From an uncultured Rhodospirillaceae bacterium (GTDB taxonomy: Bacteria > Pseudomonadota > Alphaproteobacteria > UBA8366 > GCA-2717185), in assembly GCA_964386465.1 (NCBI GenBank), contig CAYLTU010000003.1, positions 1 through 50,233 on the forward strand: a stretch of 50,233 nucleotides of DNA, read 5' to 3'. The position numbers and the translations under genes are program-made. This document shows positions 21,782 through 49,944 of the stretch, in pieces. The notes under the pieces were generated by a model, which was given only the letters and a program-made list of their open reading frames with translations, ran no database searches and was not told the DNA's origin. The stretch's first letter is position 1; each line of letters starts with the position of its first letter.

Positions 21782-21925
21782 GATCGTATCCTTTACCGGT
21801 TATACCGCCGCGGGCGAAAGCCGGTTACCCGGCACCGGAGCGGCCACTGCCATGATCGACAGCAGGCGCAAACCCGCGTGAGAGATGGCTGCGGTATATA
21901 GCCAATTTTACGGCCTTGCAAGGCC
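21782..21925 (-). promoter_or_regulatory. rpsB promoter and structured 5' leader (candidate S2 autoregulatory region)
   Basis: On the minus strand, TTGCAA then CTATATA in sigma70-like spacing; ~100-nt GC-rich leader ending AACCGGTAAAGGA before the ATG. S2 autoregulation is established in other bacteria and only inferred here. Confidence 0.5.
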
Positions 21926-32079: not shown

Positions 32080-33759
32080 CTACAGCCGCACAAGATGTAC
32101 ATCAACCGTTGGGCGCTTGCCACACAGCGCGCGCAATCGGCGGCGCACGGCGAGCCGGACGGCCTCATGAACCTGATCGTCTTTCAGCCGGGACTTGCGC
32201 GGCAAATCGTCGACCGCGTCAGCCGCAGCGTCGATCAACGAGTCGGCGATCTCGTAGTCCTTTTCAAGATCGAAGACGCCATGCGTCGATATCTTCGGAT
32301 CGGCCTGCAGTTCGCCTGTCTCGTCGACCACTACCGTGACCACCGCGGCACCGCTGTGCAGCATCTTGCGGCGTTCGCGCAGGGCGCTGCTACCCATCGA
32401 TATCAACCGGCTGCCGTCGAGCGCGAGACGGCCGCTGAACACTTCGTCGACGATTTCCGCCGGTCCCGGCGCGAGCTTGAGCAGCGTACCGTTCGGCGCG
32501 ACATGCGCTTCGGGCACCTGGCATTCCCGCGCCAGCTGTGCATGCGCCTGCATGTGGCGGATTTCACCATGTACCGGTACCGCGACGTTCGGCCGGACCC
32601 ATTGATACATCTGCGCCAGCTCGTCGCGGGCGGGATGACCGGAAACGTGAATATGCTTGTCGTCGTGCGTCGTCAGCAGTTCGACGCCATGCGAGGTCAG
32701 GCGGTTCTGCAGGCGGCCGATGGATTTCTCGTTGCCGGGGATGATGCGGCTGGAAAAAATTACCGTATCGCCCGGGTCGAGAACCGTATCGGGATGGTCG
32801 TTCCGCGCGATGCGCGCCAGCGCCGATCGCGGCTCGCCCTGGCTGCCGGTGCAGATCAACAAGACCTTGTCGCGCGGCAGCAGCGCCGCCTCCTTCGGCG
32901 ACAGGAAACGCGGGATATCGGTCAGGTAGCCGTTCTCCTGTGCCGCTTCGTAGAACCGCCACAGCGACCGGCCCACCAACCCCACGCTGCGGTCGTTAGC
33001 CGCGGCCGCATGAGCAATCGATTCAACCCGCGCGACGTTCGAGGCGAAACAGGCGACGACGACACGGTTATCGAATCGCCCGATCATTTCCGTAAGTCGC
33101 GCGCGCACGTCCGCTTCGGATCCCGACACCCCCTTTACCAGCACGTTGGTCGAGTCGCAGACCATCGCCAGAATCCCCTCCTCGCCGGCCCGGATCAGCG
33201 CGGCCTCGTCCGTGCTGGGCCCGACCAGCGGGTCGGGGTCGAGTTTCCAGTCGCCGGTATGCATCACGGCGCCGGCGCCGGTGCGGATCACGCAGGCGTT
33301 GGGCTCGGGAATCGAATGGGTCAGGGTGATCAGCTCGATATCGAACGGACCGACATCGAAACGGCCCGACAGCGGGATCTCGGTGATCGGCGCCTTGTCC
33401 TTGAGACCGGCCTCGGAGAGCTTGCGGCGCAGGATGCTGGCCGTGAACGGCGTCGCGTAGAGCGGGCACCGCAAGCGCGGCCACAGATAGGGCACGGCGC
33501 CGATATGATCCTCGTGCGCATGTGTCAGGACCAAGCCGGCGAGCGTATCCGCGCGTTCCTCGATGAAAGTCGGGTCCGGCATGATGACGTCGATGCCGGG
33601 AGTCTCGTCGTCGCCGAAGGTGATGCCGAGATCGACCATCAGCCAGGCGCCCGAATGGCCGTAGAGATTGAGGTTCATGCCGATCTCGCCCGCCCCGCCG
33701 AGGGACAGGAACAGCAGCTCGTTCTCGCCAGGCTCCCCGGTCGCCTCGAAGCCGCTCAT
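32080..33759 (-). CDS. rnj: Ribonuclease J
   Basis: LGGAGEIGMN, THAHEDHIGA, HSIPE, HTGDWK, TGSQGEP, HVSGH, PVHGE. Confidence 0.95.
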   Translation of the reverse strand: MSGFEATGEPGENELLFLSLGGAGEIGMNLNLYGHSGAWLMVDLGITFGDDETPGIDVIMPDPTFIEERADTLAGLVLTHAHEDHIGAVPYLWPRLRCPLYATPFTASILRRKLSEAGLKDKAPITEIPLSGRFDVGPFDIELITLTHSIPEPNACVIRTGAGAVMHTGDWKLDPDPLVGPSTDEAALIRAGEEGILAMVCDSTNVLVKGVSGSEADVRARLTEMIGRFDNRVVVACFASNVARVESIAHAAAANDRSVGLVGRSLWRFYEAAQENGYLTDIPRFLSPKEAALLPRDKVLLICTGSQGEPRSALARIARNDHPDTVLDPGDTVIFSSRIIPGNEKSIGRLQNRLTSHGVELLTTHDDKHIHVSGHPARDELAQMYQWVRPNVAVPVHGEIRHMQAHAQLARECQVPEAHVAPNGTLLKLAPGPAEIVDEVFSGRLALDGSRLISMGSSALRERRKMLHSGAAVVTVVVDETGELQADPKISTHGVFDLEKDYEIADSLIDAAADAVDDLPRKSRLKDDQVHEAVRLAVRRRLRALCGKRPTVDVHLVRL

Positions 33760-34529
33760 GCGCCGTTATTCCGCTTGTAGACTTCGAGCAGACCGCGGAT
33801 CGTCAGCTCGCGGTCGGTATGGTCGATGACGTCCGTCGAATCCGCAAATATCGCCGCGAGCCCGCCGGTCGCGACGACTTTCATATCGGAGTCGAATTCA
33901 CTTCTAATGCGCGCGATCATACCTTCGATCATTGCGATATAACCCCAAAAGATGCCGGATTTCATGGCTGGAACCGTCGACTTTCCGATGACTTCGTCGG
34001 TCGGTTCGATCCGAACGCGTGGTAATTGCGCGGATGCCATGTGAAGAGCCTCGGCGGACAGGTTGATACCTGGCGCGATGACGCCACCGAAATAGCTGCC
34101 CTCCGCATCCAAGACGTCGAACGTTGTCGCTGTACCGAAATCGATCACGATTGCCGGGCCACCATAACGGTTGTATGCGGATACCGCCGTTACCAGCCGG
34201 TCCGCCCCGACATGATCCGGCCGGTCGACAAGCACTTTTAGGCCCAAATCGACACCCTTGTCGCCGATCACCATAGGCGGTCCGCTGAAATAGCGTTCGC
34301 ACAGCGACACGAGATTGAACAGGCCCTGCGGTACCACGGACGCGATGATGCATCCCGTAATCGCACCTTCCGGGATGCCGCGCAGCGTCATCAGTTGGGT
34401 CAGCCAGACCGCATATTCGTCGGCCGTACGGTTGGTATCGTTGGCGCAGCGAAAGACGCCCTTCAAATCGTCGCCATCATAGACGGCAAATACGACATTG
34501 GTGTTTCCGGAGTCGATCGCGAGCAGCAT
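33756..34529 (-). CDS. coaX: Type III pantothenate kinase
   Basis: MLLAIDSGNTN, VGADR, IDFGTATTFD, GGVIAPG, VATGG. Confidence 0.95.
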   Translation of the reverse strand: MLLAIDSGNTNVVFAVYDGDDLKGVFRCANDTNRTADEYAVWLTQLMTLRGIPEGAITGCIIASVVPQGLFNLVSLCERYFSGPPMVIGDKGVDLGLKVLVDRPDHVGADRLVTAVSAYNRYGGPAIVIDFGTATTFDVLDAEGSYFGGVIAPGINLSAEALHMASAQLPRVRIEPTDEVIGKSTVPAMKSGIFWGYIAMIEGMIARIRSEFDSDMKVVATGGLAAIFADSTDVIDHTDRELTIRGLLEVYKRNNGA

Positions 34530-34544
34530 GCTAGGCGCTCCTTA

Positions 34545-34812
34545 GGAGCCTGTCCGAGTAATGCTTATGAACTGCATCGGCCAGAGAGTCGTACGTGTTA
34601 GGCGTGGTTGCGCCGGCGATGCCGGCGGCATCGTCAAGCAGCCACAACGCGGCACGCGCGCCTCTCCGGTCGACCCGAAGGGCCGCGTTCTCAAGGGTTT
34701 GGGACGTCGTCCGGCGCCGCTCGCGATGCCCCCGGCATCGCCACGCAACTCCCTCCTAACCCAAACCCTTGAGAACGCGGTGCAGTCTATAAGCATTACT
34801 CGGACAGGCTCC
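34545..34812. mobile_element. 268-bp MITE-like palindromic element, copy 1
   Basis: 24-bp perfect TIR GGAGCCTGTCCGAGTAATGCTTAT, flanked by TTA/TTA (34542-34544, 34813-34815); no transposase; 84% identical to 48791-49058. Confidence 0.88.
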
Positions 34813-35551
34813 TTATAAAGACGTCGCCCGCCGTGATCTTTTGGCGTTTACCGTCCGGCAGTTCCAGCAGCAATGCGCCGTCCGCGTCCATATCGTGGAA
34901 CCGGCCGGTAAGTTCACGGTCCGGCAACCGCACGGTAATTGGCCCACCGATACCCGCAGCCCGGTCCACCCAGGCCCGGCGCACCGGCGCCACCCCGGCC
35001 TCGAGCCAGCGGTCGCGCCAGACGAACAGCCTGTCGAGATAGTGTTCGAGGACGGTATCCAGCGCTACGGCCTTGCCGCAAACGGTTTCCAGATTGGTCG
35101 CCGGATAAGCGGTGTCGTCCGGATGCGACGCTACATTCACGCCGCACCCGATCACGATCCAGGACGCTCCGGCGCCGTTACCCTGCGACTCCAGCAGGAT
35201 GCCCGCGACCTTGCACCCGTCGACGAGTATGTCGTTCGGCCATTTGCACGCAATTTCCGCCGCCGCCGGCAGAACGGCTACGACGGCTTCCGCAAGCGCG
35301 ACTGCCGCGACGAGTGAAAGCTGCGCCGCCTCGCTCGCCGGCTTCCCGGGACGCAGAATCGTCGACGTGTATAGATTTCCGGCTGGAGAGGTCCACGCTC
35401 GGCCGCGCCGTCCGCGGCCCGCCGTCTGCTCGCGGGCCCAGACAACCGTACCGTCCGCCGCGCCGTCGAGCGCCCGCATGCGCGCCTCGTCATTCGTCGA
35501 TCCGACCGATTGGAGTTCGATCAGCGTGCAACCGTCTGGCAGGGAAGGCAT
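34796..35551 (-). CDS. birA: Biotin--[acetyl-CoA-carboxylase] ligase (no HTH); last codons and stop come from the inserted element
   Basis: STND, QTAGRGRRGR.W.SP.GNLY, KWPNDI, KVAGILLE, AGDV. Confidence 0.95.
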   Translation of the reverse strand: MPSLPDGCTLIELQSVGSTNDEARMRALDGAADGTVVWAREQTAGRGRRGRAWTSPAGNLYTSTILRPGKPASEAAQLSLVAAVALAEAVVAVLPAAAEIACKWPNDILVDGCKVAGILLESQGNGAGASWIVIGCGVNVASHPDDTAYPATNLETVCGKAVALDTVLEHYLDRLFVWRDRWLEAGVAPVRRAWVDRAAGIGGPITVRLPDRELTGRFHDMDADGALLLELPDGKRQKITAGDVFIRSLSE

Positions 35552-46972: not shown

Positions 46973-48150
46973 CGGTCGATCTCCCCGAACACGACGTCCA
47001 TGGCGCCCAGGATGGCCACCGAATCCGCAAGCATGTGCCCCTTGCACATGGAGTCCATCGCTTGCAAATGCGCGAAGCCGGGCGCCCGGATCTTGCAACG
47101 GTAGGGTTTGTTCGTGCCGTCGGAAACCAGGTAGACGCCGAATTCGCCCTTCGGTGCCTCGACGGCGGTGTAGGTCTCGCCCGCCGGCACATGAACGCCT
47201 TCGGTGTAGAGCTTGAAATGGTGGATCAGCGCTTCCATCGAACGCTTCATCTCGCCGCGCGACGGCGGTCCCACCTTGCCGTCTTCGGTCATCACCGGTC
47301 CGTCCGGCATTTGCTCAATACATTGCCGCACGATGCGCAAGCTCTGCCGCATTTCTTCCACACGGATCAGAAAACGATCGTAACAATCGCCGTTCTTGCC
47401 GACCGGGATGTCGAAATTCATCTGATCGTAGGCGTCATAGGGTTGCGACTTGCGCAGATCCCAGGGGACGCCGGAAGCTCGCAGCATCGGTCCAGAGAAA
47501 CCCCAGGCCATCGCCTCCTCTTCCGATACGACGCCGATATCGACCGTCCGCTGCTTGAAGATGCGGTTTTCGTTGAGCAGGGTTTCCAGGTCATCGAGAA
47601 ACTTCGGGAACGCGTCGGCCCAGGCAAGAATATCCTCGCCCATGCCGGCCGGCATGTCCTGATGAACCCCGCCAACCCGGAAATAGGCCGCGTGCAGGCG
47701 CGCGCCGCAGGTGGCCTCGTAGAACTCCATAATTTTTTCGCGTTCCTCGAACGCCCAGAGCATCGGCGTCATCGCTCCAACATCCAGCGCCAGCGCCGGC
47801 GCGTTAAGCAGATGGTTGAGTATTCGCGAGATTTCAGCGAACAGCACGCGGACGTATTGGCCGCGCGGCGGCGGTGCGATGCCGAGCAGCTTTTCGGCAG
47901 CGAGCACGAACGCGTGCTCCTGACACATCGGCGCGACATAGTCGAGGCGATCGAAATACGGCATCGCCTGTAGATAGGTCTTGTATTCGATAAGCTTCTC
48001 GGTGCCGCGGTGCAGGAGGCCGACATGGGGATCGATCCGCTCGACGATCTCGCCGTCCATCTCCATCACCATGCGCAGCACGCCATGCGCGGCCGGATGC
48101 TGCGGGCCGAAATTCAGCGTCAGATTCTTGATTTCCGCTTCCGCCGCCAT
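46969..48150 (-). CDS. nuoD: NADH-quinone oxidoreductase subunit D
   Basis: [32 protein letters not shown]; start set at ATG 48150. Confidence 0.98.
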
Positions 48151-48773
48151 CAGCCCTCTTCCGCCTCCGCCTTCTCGTCGCCCGGCAACTCGCGCGTCAT
48201 GCCCTCCCAAGGGCTCAGGTAATCGAAAGACCGGAACGCCTGGGTCAGCTTCACCGGTTCGTAGACCACGCGTTTCTGTTCATCGTCGTAGCGGACCTCG
48301 ACATAGCCGGTGAGCGGAAAGTCCTTGCGCAGCGGATGTCCCTCGAAGCCGTAATCCGTCAACAGGCGCCGCAGGTCGGGGTGATCGGAGAAAAAGACGC
48401 CGTACATGTCCCAGCATTCCCGCTCGAACCAGGAAGCCGTGGGAAACACGCCCGATACCGACGGCACCGGCGTGTCTTCATCCGTGCGGACTTTGATTCG
48501 AACCCGCTGGTTATGCTTGTAGCTGAGCAGGTTGTAATTCACTTCGAAGCGGATTGCCCGCTCCGGATAATCGACGCCGCAAATATCCATCAAGCTCTTG
48601 AACAGGCAACTTGAATCATCGCGCAGGAATTTCAAGGTACGAACCACATCGCCGCCCGCGACTTCAACGTTCAGCTCACTGTTTGTAATATTATGATCGA
48701 GGACAACTGCGCCGAGTGCCGCAACGATATGCGCCCTTAACTCTTCGAGCGCGTCTTGGGTGGCGTCGTTCAT
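48150..48773 (-). CDS. nuoC: NADH-quinone oxidoreductase subunit C
   Basis: [32 protein letters not shown]; start set at ATG 48773. Confidence 0.96.
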
Positions 48774-48790
48774 CGAGCTTCCCGTCTCTA

Positions 48791-49058
48791 GGAGCTTGTC
48801 TGAGTGATGCTTCCGGTCTGCATCGAGCAGAGAGGCGTGCATGTTAGAAGGGGGTGCGCCGGCGATGCTGGCGGCATCGTCAAGCATCCACGACGCGGCA
48901 GGCGCGCCTCTCTGCTCGACCCGAAGGGCCGCGTTTTCAAAGCCTTGGGACGGCGTCCGGCGCCGCTTGCGATGCCACCGGCATCGCCACGCGACACCGT
49001 CCTAGCCCAAGACTTTGAAAACGCGGTGCAAACCATAAGCATCACTCAGACAAGCTCC
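48791..49058. mobile_element. 268-bp MITE-like palindromic element, copy 2
   Basis: 22-bp perfect TIR GGAGCTTGTCTGAGTGATGCTT, flanked by TA/TA (48789-48790, 49059-49060); colinear with copy 1, no indels. Confidence 0.88.
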
Positions 49059-49588
49059 TAACGCGCGATCGTACCGGTGCGCTTGATCTTCTTCTGCAAC
49101 TGCAGAAAGCCATAGACCAGCGCTTCGGCGGTCGGCGGGCAACCGGGGACATAAATGTCCACCGGTACGATCCGGTCGCAACCGCGCACCACGGCATAAG
49201 AATAATGATAATAACCGCCGCCATTGGCGCAGGACCCCATCGAAACGACCCAGCGGGGTTCCGCCATCTGGTCATAGACCTTGCGCAGCGCCGGCGCCAT
49301 TTTGTTGGTCAGGGTCCCGGCGACGATCATCACATCCGATTGGCGGGGACTGCCGCGCGGTACGATTCCAAAGCGGTCCAAATCGTAGCGCGGCATATAG
49401 GCGTGGATCATCTCGACGGCGCAGCAGGCGAGACCGAACGTCATGGGCCACAGCGAGCCGGTCCGCGCCCAGTTCACGACCTTGTCGGCGTTCGCGATGA
49501 TAAACCCTTTGTCGGCCAAGGTATCGTTGACCAGGCTCATCGCGCCTTCGTTGTCGCCCTGCTTGAGCGCCGGAGTATCTACTCCCAT
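49058..49588 (-). CDS. nuoB: NADH-quinone oxidoreductase subunit B
   Basis: [31 protein letters not shown]; start set at ATG 49588. Confidence 0.97.
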
Positions 49589-49944
49589 TCGAGCGCGCCT
49601 TTCCGCCATTCATAGATGAAACCGATCGTGAGGATTCCGAGGAAGATCACCATCGACCAGAATCCGAAGAGCCCGATATTGCCGAGAGAGATCGCCCAGG
49701 GGAACAGGAACGCGACTTCCAGATCGAAGATGATGAACAGGATCGCAACAAGGTAGAACCGAACGTCGAACCGGCTGCGCGCGTCATCGAAGGCTTCGAA
49801 TCCGCATTCATAAGCAGAGAGTTTTTCAGAGTCCGGTTTCTGGTGGGCGAGTATGACACTTGCCACGAGCATCCCGACGGAGATGCCTACGGCGATGGCT
49901 AGGAAAATCAGAACCGGCAGATACTCCCGCAATATGCCGTCCAT
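49579..49944 (-). CDS. nuoA: NADH-quinone oxidoreductase subunit A
   Basis: [36 protein letters not shown]. Confidence 0.97.

Follow-up and report, generated by a model that had tools for sequence, protein, structure and literature searches.

A probable, apparently undescribed superfamily of IS630-type MITEs in Alphaproteobacteria

The window analyzed here, a stretch of 50,233 nucleotides from an uncultured Rhodospirillaceae bacterium (assembly GCA_964386465.1, contig CAYLTU010000003.1), contains two copies of a short repeated element, one near coaX and the other among genes for NADH dehydrogenase subunits (Table 1). The copies are both 268 bp long, lie in the same orientation, and align without gaps. 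Our script counted 43 differences between them (26 transitions and 17 transversions; 83.96% identity), as the original prediction had reported from a manual count of 43 substitutions and about 84%. Direct reading of the termini likewise agreed with it: perfect terminal inverted repeats (TIRs) of 24 bp in copy 1 and 22 bp in copy 2, both beginning with GGAGC, are flanked by TTA/TTA and TA/TA, respectively. The birA-like reading frame extends 17 nt into copy 1, with its stop codon at 34796-34798. No transposase gene was found in the window, and the element is thus without a coding partner there, as had been claimed.

Table 1. Positions of the two elements, their parts and the adjoining genes in the window.
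Feature	Coordinates	Strand	Remarks
coaX, type III pantothenate kinase	33756..34529	-	PF03309, 5.5e-73; downstream of copy 1
Copy 1 left flanking TA (target duplication)	34543..34544	.	TTA spans 34542-34544
Copy 1, 268-bp family-A element	34545..34812	+ (core-model orientation)	between birA and coaX
Copy 1 helix P1, 5' strand	34546..34576	+	contains 24-bp perfect TIR 34545-34568
Copy 1 left hairpin arm P2-P3-P4	34580..34672	+	G-U tolerated on + strand
Copy 1 inter-arm linker	34673..34680	+	part of conserved GACCCGAAGGGC
Copy 1 right hairpin arm P5-P6-P7	34681..34782	-	homologous to left arm on - strand
Copy 1 helix P1, 3' strand = right TIR	34781..34811	+	element end 34812
Copy 1 right flank TTA	34813..34815	.	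TA at 34814-34815 plus one extra T
birA-like biotin protein ligase	34796..35551	-	PF03099, PF02237
nuoC, 30-kDa subunit	48150..48773	-	PF00329; start codon 17 nt from copy 2
Copy 2 left TA (target duplication)	48789..48790	.	
Copy 2, 268-bp family-A element	48791..49058	+	between nuoB and nuoC, both on - strand
Copy 2 left hairpin arm	48826..48918	+	
Copy 2 right hairpin arm	48927..49028	-	left-arm homologue on - strand
Copy 2 right TA	49059..49060	.	with element base 49058, forms the nuoB TAG stop on the - strand
nuoB, NADH dehydrogenase 20-kDa subunit	49058..49609	-	PF01058

Both copies are predicted to fold very stably, with energies of -177.1 kcal/mol (z = -13.9) for copy 1 and -175.6 kcal/mol (z = -13.3) for copy 2; none of 200 shuffled controls folded as well. 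The repeat pair and its fold are far beyond chance expectation. A scripted comparison identified 19 base pairs of the copy-1 fold that are changed between the window copies: nine have changed on both sides and three on one side without loss of pairing, and seven are broken. The differences between the copies are largely compensatory, a feature that the original prediction had missed.

The source assembly holds 11 full-length copies of this family (hereafter family A), with 83-100% identity to one or the other window copy, and about 82 loci of a wider superfamily that includes it. The expectation that the genome would contain many more copies was therefore well founded. Both window loci are empty in all five congeners examined. 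Relative to these, the copy 2 locus consists of the empty site (CCTAG or CCTAT), the element, and two additional bases, TA. Full-length family A is present in only two of seven other congeners, and one congener represented by a 20-contig assembly (G005) carries at least 17 family-A copies. A core pattern matched 26, 24, 24, 2, 1, 1, 0, and 0 times in eight genomes of the genus, and a control pattern not at all. Two pairs of elements are 100% identical, the flanks differing between the loci of each pair, and the genes beside family copies are unrelated from one copy to the next. Judging from these sequence comparisons, both window copies are insertions of a mobile element. In three DNA runs, no contig in the empty-site form, i.e., joining across the element, was found; this result carries little weight, as contigs drop rare variants.

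Could the copies instead represent a cis-regulatory or small-RNA gene that is immobile, passed on vertically, and similar to a transposon in appearance only? Such a gene would fit the very strong structure and covariation (see below) and the position of both window copies inside core-gene operons. It is contradicted by the emptiness of both loci in five of five congeners; the unrelated flanking genes, the range of 0 to 26 matches within the genus, the TA duplication, and the lack of an Rfam match also speak against it. We consider its probability negligible.

Family A is not isolated: it is one of at least nine distinct terminal-repeat families that surround one conserved, structured core. The superfamily elements are 257-268 bp long, contain no genes, and have TIRs of about 22-38 bp. 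Family A ends read GGAGCCTGTCCGAG..., and family-A-type ends are also written GGAGCCTGTC. The core comprises two hairpin arms of about 95 nt that repeat a single module (TAGGAG / CGATGC-loop-GCATCG / CAAG / CGACGC) in inverted orientation to each other, with GACCCGAAGGGC as the link between them; in the left arm of copy 1, the corresponding motifs are TAGG(C/A)G, the hairpin GGCGATGC-loop-GCATCGTC, CAAG, and (C/A)ACGC. The ends are predicted to close a three-way structure made up of a 31-bp terminal helix and the two internal arms.

This structure is well reflected in the alignment of the superfamily. Compensatory change was found in 79 of 90 predicted pairs. With the terminal helix left out, 91.2% of cells are paired, vs. 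68.5% in shuffled alignments (0 of 500 shuffles reached the observed value), and the covariation is 0.591, vs. 0.175 after shuffling and at most 0.184 in slid controls. The CGATGC-loop-GCATCG hairpin is invariant in all 49 aligned elements; loop lengths vary by 1-5 bases between families. Inspection by eye of a potential long-range AGGAG-CTCCT pairing revealed no covariation.

The same data bear on the notion that the element encodes a small protein, which is suggested by ORFs of 84-85 codons that traverse copy 1 on either strand (34561-34818 on the plus strand and 34542-34796 on the minus strand). On either strand, even the best frame stays open in just 6 of the 11 family-A copies, a finding that contradicts this notion. 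Further, the loop-length differences between families mean that no frame is conserved, and the pattern of substitution is one of compensation within stems, not one of codons. A coding role is thus scarcely credible.

What mechanism moves these elements? TA/TA flanks were observed at 8 of 11 family-A copies, at 50 of 63 superfamily elements in the source assembly, and at 58 of 88 elsewhere, with the TA frequently situated within CTAG. The left TA is absent in 2 of the 11 family-A copies, and the TTA/TTA flanks of copy 1 are an exception to the TA/TA rule. At copy 2, the sole site at which the target duplication is exactly measurable, it is 2 bp. The original prediction held that the flanks of the two copies disagreed such that no family could be assigned, and it had entertained a 3-bp duplication of the IS5 type. 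Because TA/TA predominates and the TTA of copy 1 is the odd one out, an IS630/Tc1-mariner-type mechanism can be assigned after all, and the IS5-type option is dropped. According to PMC2170065, IS630-family transposition duplicates TA. The elements have in common with IS630/Tc1-mariner MITEs the insertion at and duplication of TA, the TIRs, the small size, and the lack of coding capacity; a cognate transposase in the same genome, another characteristic of such MITEs, was not found in the source assembly. On the strength of these sequence features, it is likely that the elements constitute an IS630-type MITE superfamily in Alphaproteobacteria and use the IS630/Tc1-mariner route: a trans-acting transposase would bind the TIRs (roughly 22-35 bp), excise the element, and paste it into TA (with CTAG preferred), duplicating the TA.

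Superfamily members occur in Kiloniellales-, Thalassospiraceae-, Inquilinaceae-, and Stellaceae-labelled genomes. The setting of the superfamily is one of marine and soil Alphaproteobacteria.

The superfamily is apparently undescribed. At the gathering thresholds of Rfam 15, there was no match on the element in the window or in 13 loci of diverse families; permissive thresholds brought up only generic long-hairpin microRNA models, far below their cut-offs. A literature search, supplementary files aside, yielded no description of the family, in keeping with the earlier failure to recognize a named repeat. In a 2024 census, only 1.6% of candidate MITEs were reported to be similar to described ones (bioRxiv 10.1101/2024.01.18.576219). 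Undescribed MITEs are thus common, and one more family is not news in itself.

In a search for the transposase partner, the ends of eight IS630-family insertion sequences (PF13358-positive, TA-flanked, and drawn from three other element-rich genomes) were compared with those of the MITEs. For each of the 16 ends, there is a MITE end that agrees with it at 15-20 of the 24 anchored positions; shuffled ends had a mean best match of 11, and 0-16 of 1000 shuffles reached the observed value. The MITE families with IS630-like ends are three sister families (CCAAG/CCAAC, GAGCG, and GTGTCC), not family A. One IS630 copy was found inserted at a TA within a MITE arm. The partner is inferred by way of the sister families because PF13358 has no match in G005, despite the abundance of family A in that genome. 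In the source assembly (608 contigs, such that an unassembled insertion sequence is possible), there is no intact IS630 transposase, only a 37-residue DDE_3 remnant on contig C62; congener G003 has one 239-residue IS630-type ORF. This remnant, the empty sites, and the uneven counts within the genus are in line with the original prediction of a non-autonomous family mobilized in trans.

The longer element that had been envisaged, with the same ends enclosing a transposase, did not materialize: among the genomes and loci searched, no IS630 element has family-A (GGAGCC) ends. A terminal-repeat pattern search of G005 returned 34 sites, all of them MITE-spaced pairs or solitary, and no autonomous family-A element; three of the four solitary sites were fetched, and all are 25-nt remnants. 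There were no GGAGCC-type ends at loci L060, L199, and L030, and four further IS630 loci had CCAA-type or unclear ends only.

These gaps lend some appeal to a mover other than an IS630 transposase, be it an IS5-group enzyme that duplicates 2-3 bp (TNA or TA), a serine recombinase acting at TA, or a Y1 (RAYT/IS200-type) enzyme. The genomes richest in family A (the source assembly and G005) are without an intact IS630 transposase, copy 1 is flanked on each side by a 3-bp TTA, Y1_Tnp genes are present (three in the source assembly, four in G005, and one in G003), and G005 harbors 41 copies of a PF01609 transposase. Against any such mover stand the 2-bp duplication at copy 2, the overall dominance of TA/TA, and the match of sister-family ends to IS630 ends. 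The individual candidates fare no better. PF13340 was not found in the source assembly or G005, and the two PF01609 insertion sequences of G005, tried as partners, were rejected (their ends are unrelated and without TA flanks). A model of the hairpin arm had no match in four loci around Y1 genes, and long TIRs with TA duplication are not, to our knowledge, features of REP/RAYT or IS200/IS605 elements. We deem a non-IS630 mover quite improbable and retain the IS630/Tc1-mariner assignment.

Several known repeats resemble these elements in part. RUP of Streptococcus pneumoniae, which is 107 bp long and linked to IS630-Spn1 (<200 bp is the size given in a review), and MITEEc1 are IS630/Tc1-mariner-derived MITEs that are likewise non-coding, have IS630-like TIRs, insert at and duplicate TA, and occur in many copies (PMC2229807, PMC2170065); the elements here differ in their length (257-268 bp), their at least nine terminal-repeat families, and their single covarying two-arm core. 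The Correia/NEMIS elements of Neisseria share the TA duplication, TIRs of about 24 bp, and a transcript predicted to form a long stem, which has been proposed to be an RNase III substrate affecting neighboring mRNAs (PMC2229807). Compared by description only, Correia elements differ in their length (about 107 and 155 bp), in folding into one stem that spans the element from end to end, and in carrying an IHF site. The Caulobacter repeats CIR1-4 also are alphaproteobacterial and intergenic, with TA termini and two arms plus a linker in the predicted RNA (PMC2229807). By their description, which was the sole basis for comparison, these CcrM-associated repeats differ in being about 110 bp long, without end-to-end pairing, and in being defined by a conserved GANTC site in a terminal loop; of the 49 elements here, only 11 contain GANTC, and at no conserved column. 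ERIC/IRU repeats of enterobacteria are TA-flanked and palindromic and are co-transcribed with their neighbors (as presumed here), with reported effects on mRNA stability (PMC2229807). They are 127 bp long, have a terminal pairing of 7 bp, and act in an orientation-dependent manner, whereas the element here is symmetric and presents the same first arm either way. A MITE of the IS5 group (IS1031/IS427-type, with a 2-4-bp TNA duplication) is disfavored by the 2-bp duplication and the failure to find a PF13340 partner in the source assembly or G005. REP/REPIN sequences are palindromes of 20-40 bp, flanking a single-copy Y1 gene in practice, without TIRs or target duplication; a REP/REPIN with RAYT is disfavored by the long TIRs, the TA duplication, and the absence of arms at the four Y1 loci examined. 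A GTAG/CGTC head is given as a REP/REPIN criterion in PMC3733652.

The core itself has a strand signature. Counts of G-U vs. A-C stand at 41:37 for the terminal helix, at 110:24 for the left arm, and at 17:62 for the right arm without one conserved G-U pair (51:62 with it). The mirror between the arms is significant with the conserved right-arm pair counted (Fisher p = 2e-9). A replicate comprising 39 other elements, added to the columns of alignment A2, gave 47:50 (helix), 67:25 (left), and 39:63 (right; p = 1.6e-6). In each arm, G-U is tolerated on the inward-reading strand only. In copy 1, accordingly, A-C mismatches on the plus strand of the right arm are G-U pairs on the minus strand. This mirror most likely reflects selection on a single-stranded form, RNA being the best candidate, and a host transcript entering from either side would meet a well-formed arm first. 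To find such a signature in a MITE is unusual: it would be a clean population-genetic sign of selection on the single-stranded form, with both orientations served.

Is the core merely a remnant of a longer insertion sequence? The arm model had no match in 12 loci (IS630 copies or the surroundings of Y1 genes). Because the IS630 copies examined lack the arm, the core is not simply leftover sequence. No core had halves more than 500 bp apart in 115 fetched stretches, and isolated half-cores proved to be truncations. For ISY100, 30 bp per end is reported to be enough, a mini-transposon being as good as the full element (PMC2170065). Thus, with the arm absent from IS630 copies and mini-ISY100 active without internal sequence, a transposon model alone leaves the conservation of the core unexplained. 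It is this covarying core, shared by at least nine end families even though 30 bp per end suffices for an IS630-family element, that sets the superfamily apart.

The arms might nevertheless act in cis during transposition, as DNA hairpins extruded on the non-transferred strand (the strand with its 5' end at each transposon tip) that help a transposase or host protein in complex assembly or end choice. Mirrored arms that each fold on the inward strand are symmetric in the way of transposon ends, unlike a typical RNA gene, the invariance of the CGATGC-loop-GCATCG hairpin (49 of 49) suggests sequence-specific recognition, and elements with different terminal repeats have kept the same core. The sufficiency of short ends in ISY100 and the armless IS630 copies in element-rich genomes argue to the contrary. 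We know of no IS630/Tc1-mariner element that requires internal hairpins, and IS630-family cut-and-paste probably exposes little single-stranded DNA. This role for the arms seems rather unlikely to us.

We tentatively propose, as a possibility we still hold to be doubtful, that the ~95-nt module is a functional RNA carried on IS630-type mini-transposons, and that its mirrored copies, by making the first arm of a read-through transcript the working one in both orientations, render it a mobile, orientation-independent device that has spread onto at least nine terminal-repeat families. If the core were functional, it would exemplify a structured RNA that travels on DNA transposons. An RNA library contained one 171-nt contig with seven differences, which stems from another copy; carry-over of DNA is possible, and we do not regard the contig as demonstrating transcription.

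The positions of the elements relative to genes provide a context for this proposal. The flanking TA coincides with codon positions 1-2 at 30 of 41 element ends that face a gene-like ORF (chance expectation, one third), and 28 of these 30 in-frame ends (28 of 41 overall) form the stop codon of the facing ORF; the gene calls used in counting stop codons and orientations are rough, relying on an ORF-length and GC3 filter only. Since the G...C ends rebuild (C)TAG at the junctions, a gene whose TAA or TAG stop is hit by an insertion still ends in TAG, whichever way the element is oriented. The element can therefore occupy stop codons harmlessly, even between nuoB and nuoC. A simple scan of the element found no promoter-like or terminator-like sites. 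The rebuilding of TAG and the absence of terminators would allow residence in operons such as birA-coaX and nuoB-nuoC, where the elements would be co-transcribed with their neighbors. If the module is indeed a functional RNA, it might, when located after stop codons, capture or release terminating ribosomes via an exposed Shine-Dalgarno-like loop; alternatively, it might set mRNA processing and stability. A functional core would also make the element a natural portable insert that is tolerated within essential operons. At copy 2, the stop codon of nuoB is composed of the duplicated TA and the terminal base of the element.

The two copies of the element bear out the original prediction: they are each 268 bp long and co-oriented, their alignment is gap-free, and a scripted count gave the 43 differences expected (83.96% identity). 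The perfect terminal inverted repeats (24 bp in copy 1, 22 bp in copy 2, both starting GGAGC) and the flanks (TTA/TTA and TA/TA, respectively) were likewise as read from the sequence. Both copies fold far better than their shuffled counterparts (copy 1, -177.1 kcal/mol, z ~ -13.9; copy 2, -175.6 kcal/mol, z ~ -13.3), with none of 200 shuffles equally good in either case. Between them, 19 pairs have changed, nine on both sides with pairing kept; the differences are thus largely compensatory. The final residues of the birA-like ORF are encoded by the transposon end of copy 1; in relatives, the gene terminates within the short spacer preceding coaX. A simple scan of copy 1 and its surroundings detected no promoter-like or terminator-like sites.

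Features of the window (nucleotide positions) and parts of the consensus structure of 49 elements
Feature	Position or extent	Strand	Remarks
Copy 1	34545-34812		Flanked by birA-like biotin ligase gene and coaX, both minus strand
Copy 2	48791-49058		Flanked by nuoB and nuoC, both minus strand
nuoB stop codon, TAG	49058-49060	minus	Duplicated TA plus terminal base of copy 2
End of birA-like ORF inside copy 1	34796-34812	minus	17 nt of element read before the stop
rpsB leader RNA (RF01815)	21784-21882	minus	44.7 bits (gathering score 40); the window's sole Rfam match
Terminal helix P1	31 pairs		
Left arm	P2, P3, P4		
Linker between arms	GACCCGAAGGGC		
Right arm	P5, P6, P7		

The assembly to which the window belongs (G000; 608 contigs, 6.2 Mb, the window being contig C3) holds 11 full-length copies of this family, termed family A, at 83–100% identity to one of the two window copies, besides deleted forms; the anticipated further copies therefore exist. 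When each window copy with 500-bp flanks was used to query five congeneric genomes, the flanks adjoined without the element at both loci in all five, as expected of a mobile element. The empty sites of copy 2 read ...CCTAG/CGCG... or ...CCTAT/CGCG..., and the filled site has, beyond the element itself, exactly two extra bases, TA. For copy 1, duplications of TA and TTA are indistinguishable because the spacer length differs between relatives. Metagenome contigs from three separate studies span both junctions of copy 1, and its boundaries are confirmed by contig ends of other copies, which stop at 34543/34813; no empty-site joint occurred among the metagenome contigs checked. The runs containing the window stretch come from marine, seawater or hydrothermal-vent metagenomes. 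Of seven other congeners, only two have full-length family-A copies, and 33 other genomes of the family or order gave none at E <= 1e-5, save two short partial matches. Two 100%-identical element pairs, each at loci with differing flanks, suggest recent movement. We consider mobility and the TA mechanism well supported. Four TA-flanked mini-forms of 45–50 bp (G000 C258:6108-6152, C6:25537-25585, C482:1125-1173 and C66:302-336), in which the left terminal arm is joined to the last 5–11 bases of the right end, resemble full copies that have lost their interior by deletion.

BLAST with the element returned further internal matches, roughly 160 bp long, in other repeats. Three rounds of nhmmer with this internal part in G000 yielded 32, 104 and 165 matches, merged into 82 loci. 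Sixty-three are elements of 255–276 bp (most commonly 263, 257 or 268 bp) with inverted repeats of 20 bp or more at their ends, and 50 of these have symmetric TA flanks, often CTAG. There are at least nine end groups: family A has GGAGCCTGTCCGAG; others include CCAAAGGTCATGG, CCAAGGAGCG, GAGCCTTTCACGG and GTGGACACAATC, with GTACCCTC, GAGCCCGTTTGG, GGTCATGGACTC and GCCCGGATATC as further examples. A single internal architecture is common to all, and the element is a member of a superfamily, not a lone family. A pattern for the core motif matched 26 times in G000, in 10 of 40 relatives (within the genus, 26, 24, 24, 2, 1, 1, 0 and 0 times) and in 5 of 400 other genomes sampled evenly from the class; the reversed control pattern had zero matches in the same samples. 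Scanning one genome per species returned at least 115 stretches, nearly all from metagenome-assembled genomes (MAGs) and, in the matches listed, labelled Alphaproteobacteria, Rhodospirillales, Kiloniellales, Thalassospiraceae, Inquilinaceae, Stellaceae or similar. The matches listed include 88 near-complete cores, 58 of them in elements with clean TA flanks (mostly 264, 257 or 263 bp); among these matches, end families recur across genomes, with family A in several other taxa. A one-arm covariance model, with 150 candidates scored per genome, detected between at least 109 and at least 150 arms in each of four element-rich genomes; a fifth had 22. Two contigs with other labels, Nitrososphaerota archaeon (346 kb; L179:167-417) and Akkermansiaceae (2.7 kb; L110:216-478), carry complete core-bearing elements, through either mis-binning or transfer beyond Alphaproteobacteria. 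A cobalamin riboswitch (RF00174, 96.5 bits; L014:536-710, G000:C157) lies ~700 bp from a family-B element.

Which transposase moves these elements? The coding partner reported missing from the window is hardly better represented in the G000 assembly, which has merely a 37-residue DDE_3 (PF13358) remnant. In G005, a congener, PF13358 is absent despite 20 contigs, at least 17 family-A copies and dozens of TA-flanked elements; another congener, G003, has one PF13358 ORF of 239 residues. PF01609 was rejected as a partner in G005, its 41 copies being two insertion sequences (ISs; 1209 and 1274 bp) with unrelated ends, and PF13340 had no match in G000 or G005. Four family-A ends in G005 are solitary; of the three inspected, none bounds a longer element. 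Three long-read genomes carrying the superfamily gave 21, 67 and at least 150 matches to PF13358, and their TA-flanked IS630 elements (1050–1181 bp) start CCAAG/CCAAC, GAGCG or GTGTCC. All 16 IS630 ends matched the end of some miniature, gene-less element (MITE) at 15–20 of 24 anchored bases; the mean best for shuffled ends was 11, and the observed value was reached by 0–16 of 1000 shuffles. PMC2170065 describes IS630-family insertion at TA with TA duplication, and 30 bp per end as enough for ISY100. Because of these properties and the likeness of MITE and IS630 ends, we assign the superfamily, on sequence grounds, to putative IS630-type MITEs. Family A, its own partner missing, would belong here by analogy with its sister families. 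Since the identical pairs point to recent movement, its IS may lie unassembled in the fragmented G000 MAG.

Several further arrangements were observed. In one superfamily MITE, a TA of the left arm is occupied by a nested 1163-bp IS630-family element (L208:650-2258, G043:C1), and the same IS adjoins a truncated core in L202. Four head-to-tail IS630-family copies (L211:447-5177, G042:C1; period 1181 bp, transposase of 377 residues) share single TA junctions in a genome with at least 150 PF13358 matches. Y1_Tnp (PF01797) has three matches in G000 (C132:1299-1622, C304:2939-3265 and C427:623-787); the one inspected, on C132 (L215), had no hairpin arm beside it.

The core was aligned in 49 diverse elements (10 from G000, 39 from other MAGs; alignment A2). 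The consensus structure has 90 pairs, with compensatory change in 79. Because covariation in P1 could reflect two ends matching one transposase, the 59 internal pairs were tested alone: 91.2% of cells were paired vs. 68.5 +/- 0.6% after shuffling (reached by 0 of 500 shuffles), and 48 pairs had changed on both sides. The internal covariation score was 0.591, vs. 0.175 for shuffles and at most 0.184 with partners slid by 1–3 columns. A hairpin CGATG...CATCG and the loop bases (Y)AGGAG, CAAG and CGACGC are near-invariant. Read on the opposite strand, the right arm aligns with the left; the core therefore comprises two inverted copies of a ~95-nt module, which had no matches in 12 loci around IS630 copies and Y1 transposase genes. 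A protein-coding reading was rejected, as the ORFs that cross the element are not conserved (open in 6 of 11 copies). By eye, a tandem sheared G.A motif (G-C, G.A, A.G, G-C) could be drawn from the near-invariant AGGAG and CGACG, which face each other across the arm (A2 columns 56-61 opposite 103-108; copy 1 ~34598-34603 and 34645-34650).

Ratios of G-U to A-C oppositions on the plus strand
Region	49 aligned elements	39 other G000 elements
P1	41:37	47:50
Left arm	110:24	67:25
Right arm, all pairs	51:62	64:63
Right arm minus one conserved G-U pair	17:62	39:63

An A-C opposition on one strand is a G-U pair on the other, and from the counts each arm therefore stays foldable on its inward-reading strand; the terminal repeats have no strand preference. 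The arms of the 49 elements differ with the conserved G-U pair counted (Fisher p = 2e-9), similarly so after collapse to 32 clusters at 85% identity, and the 39 further elements, fitted onto the existing A2 columns, gave p = 1.6e-6 with that pair set aside. To judge from these counts, a single mutational bias could not yield opposite signs in the two arms, and a double-stranded or cruciform role would yield no asymmetry. The simplest reading is that selection acts on the single-stranded form of the arms; a transcript from either side would encounter a well-formed first arm. Its main rival gives the role to DNA hairpins on non-transferred strands. Direct evidence of element transcription is thin: one 171-nt metatranscriptome contig over 34594-34760, which stems from another copy because it has 7 differences from copy 1.

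As an IS630-type MITE, the element would work like RUP with IS630-Spn1, and its long stem recalls Correia and ERIC, whose effects on neighbouring mRNAs are reported in PMC2229807. Its size (257–268 bp), a two-arm core common to many end families and its mirrored strand signature set it apart from all three. The same paper defines the CIR repeats of Alphaproteobacteria by the CcrM site GANTC; here, in contrast, GANTC is unconserved (11 of 49 elements). The original prediction recognised no named repeat family, and indeed no Rfam 15 family matches the element and no prior description was found in the literature searched. The class of IS630-type MITEs is known already, and this superfamily is apparently undescribed.

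The 50 TA-flanked G000 elements were also examined for stop codons. Their 100 ends included 3 at contig edges and 56 without a gene-like inward-reading ORF (crude calls: at least 80 codons, GC3 >=0.68), leaving 41. In 30 of these, where chance predicts one third, the flanking TA occupies codon positions 1-2 of the facing ORF, and in 28 of the 30 it belongs to the stop codon, mostly TAG via the element's first G. Several elements between convergent genes provide stop codons for both. Between co-directional genes, the core-model orientation ran antisense to the genes 24 times and sense 9 times, a bias regarded as weak; convergent contexts numbered 13 vs. 4 divergent.
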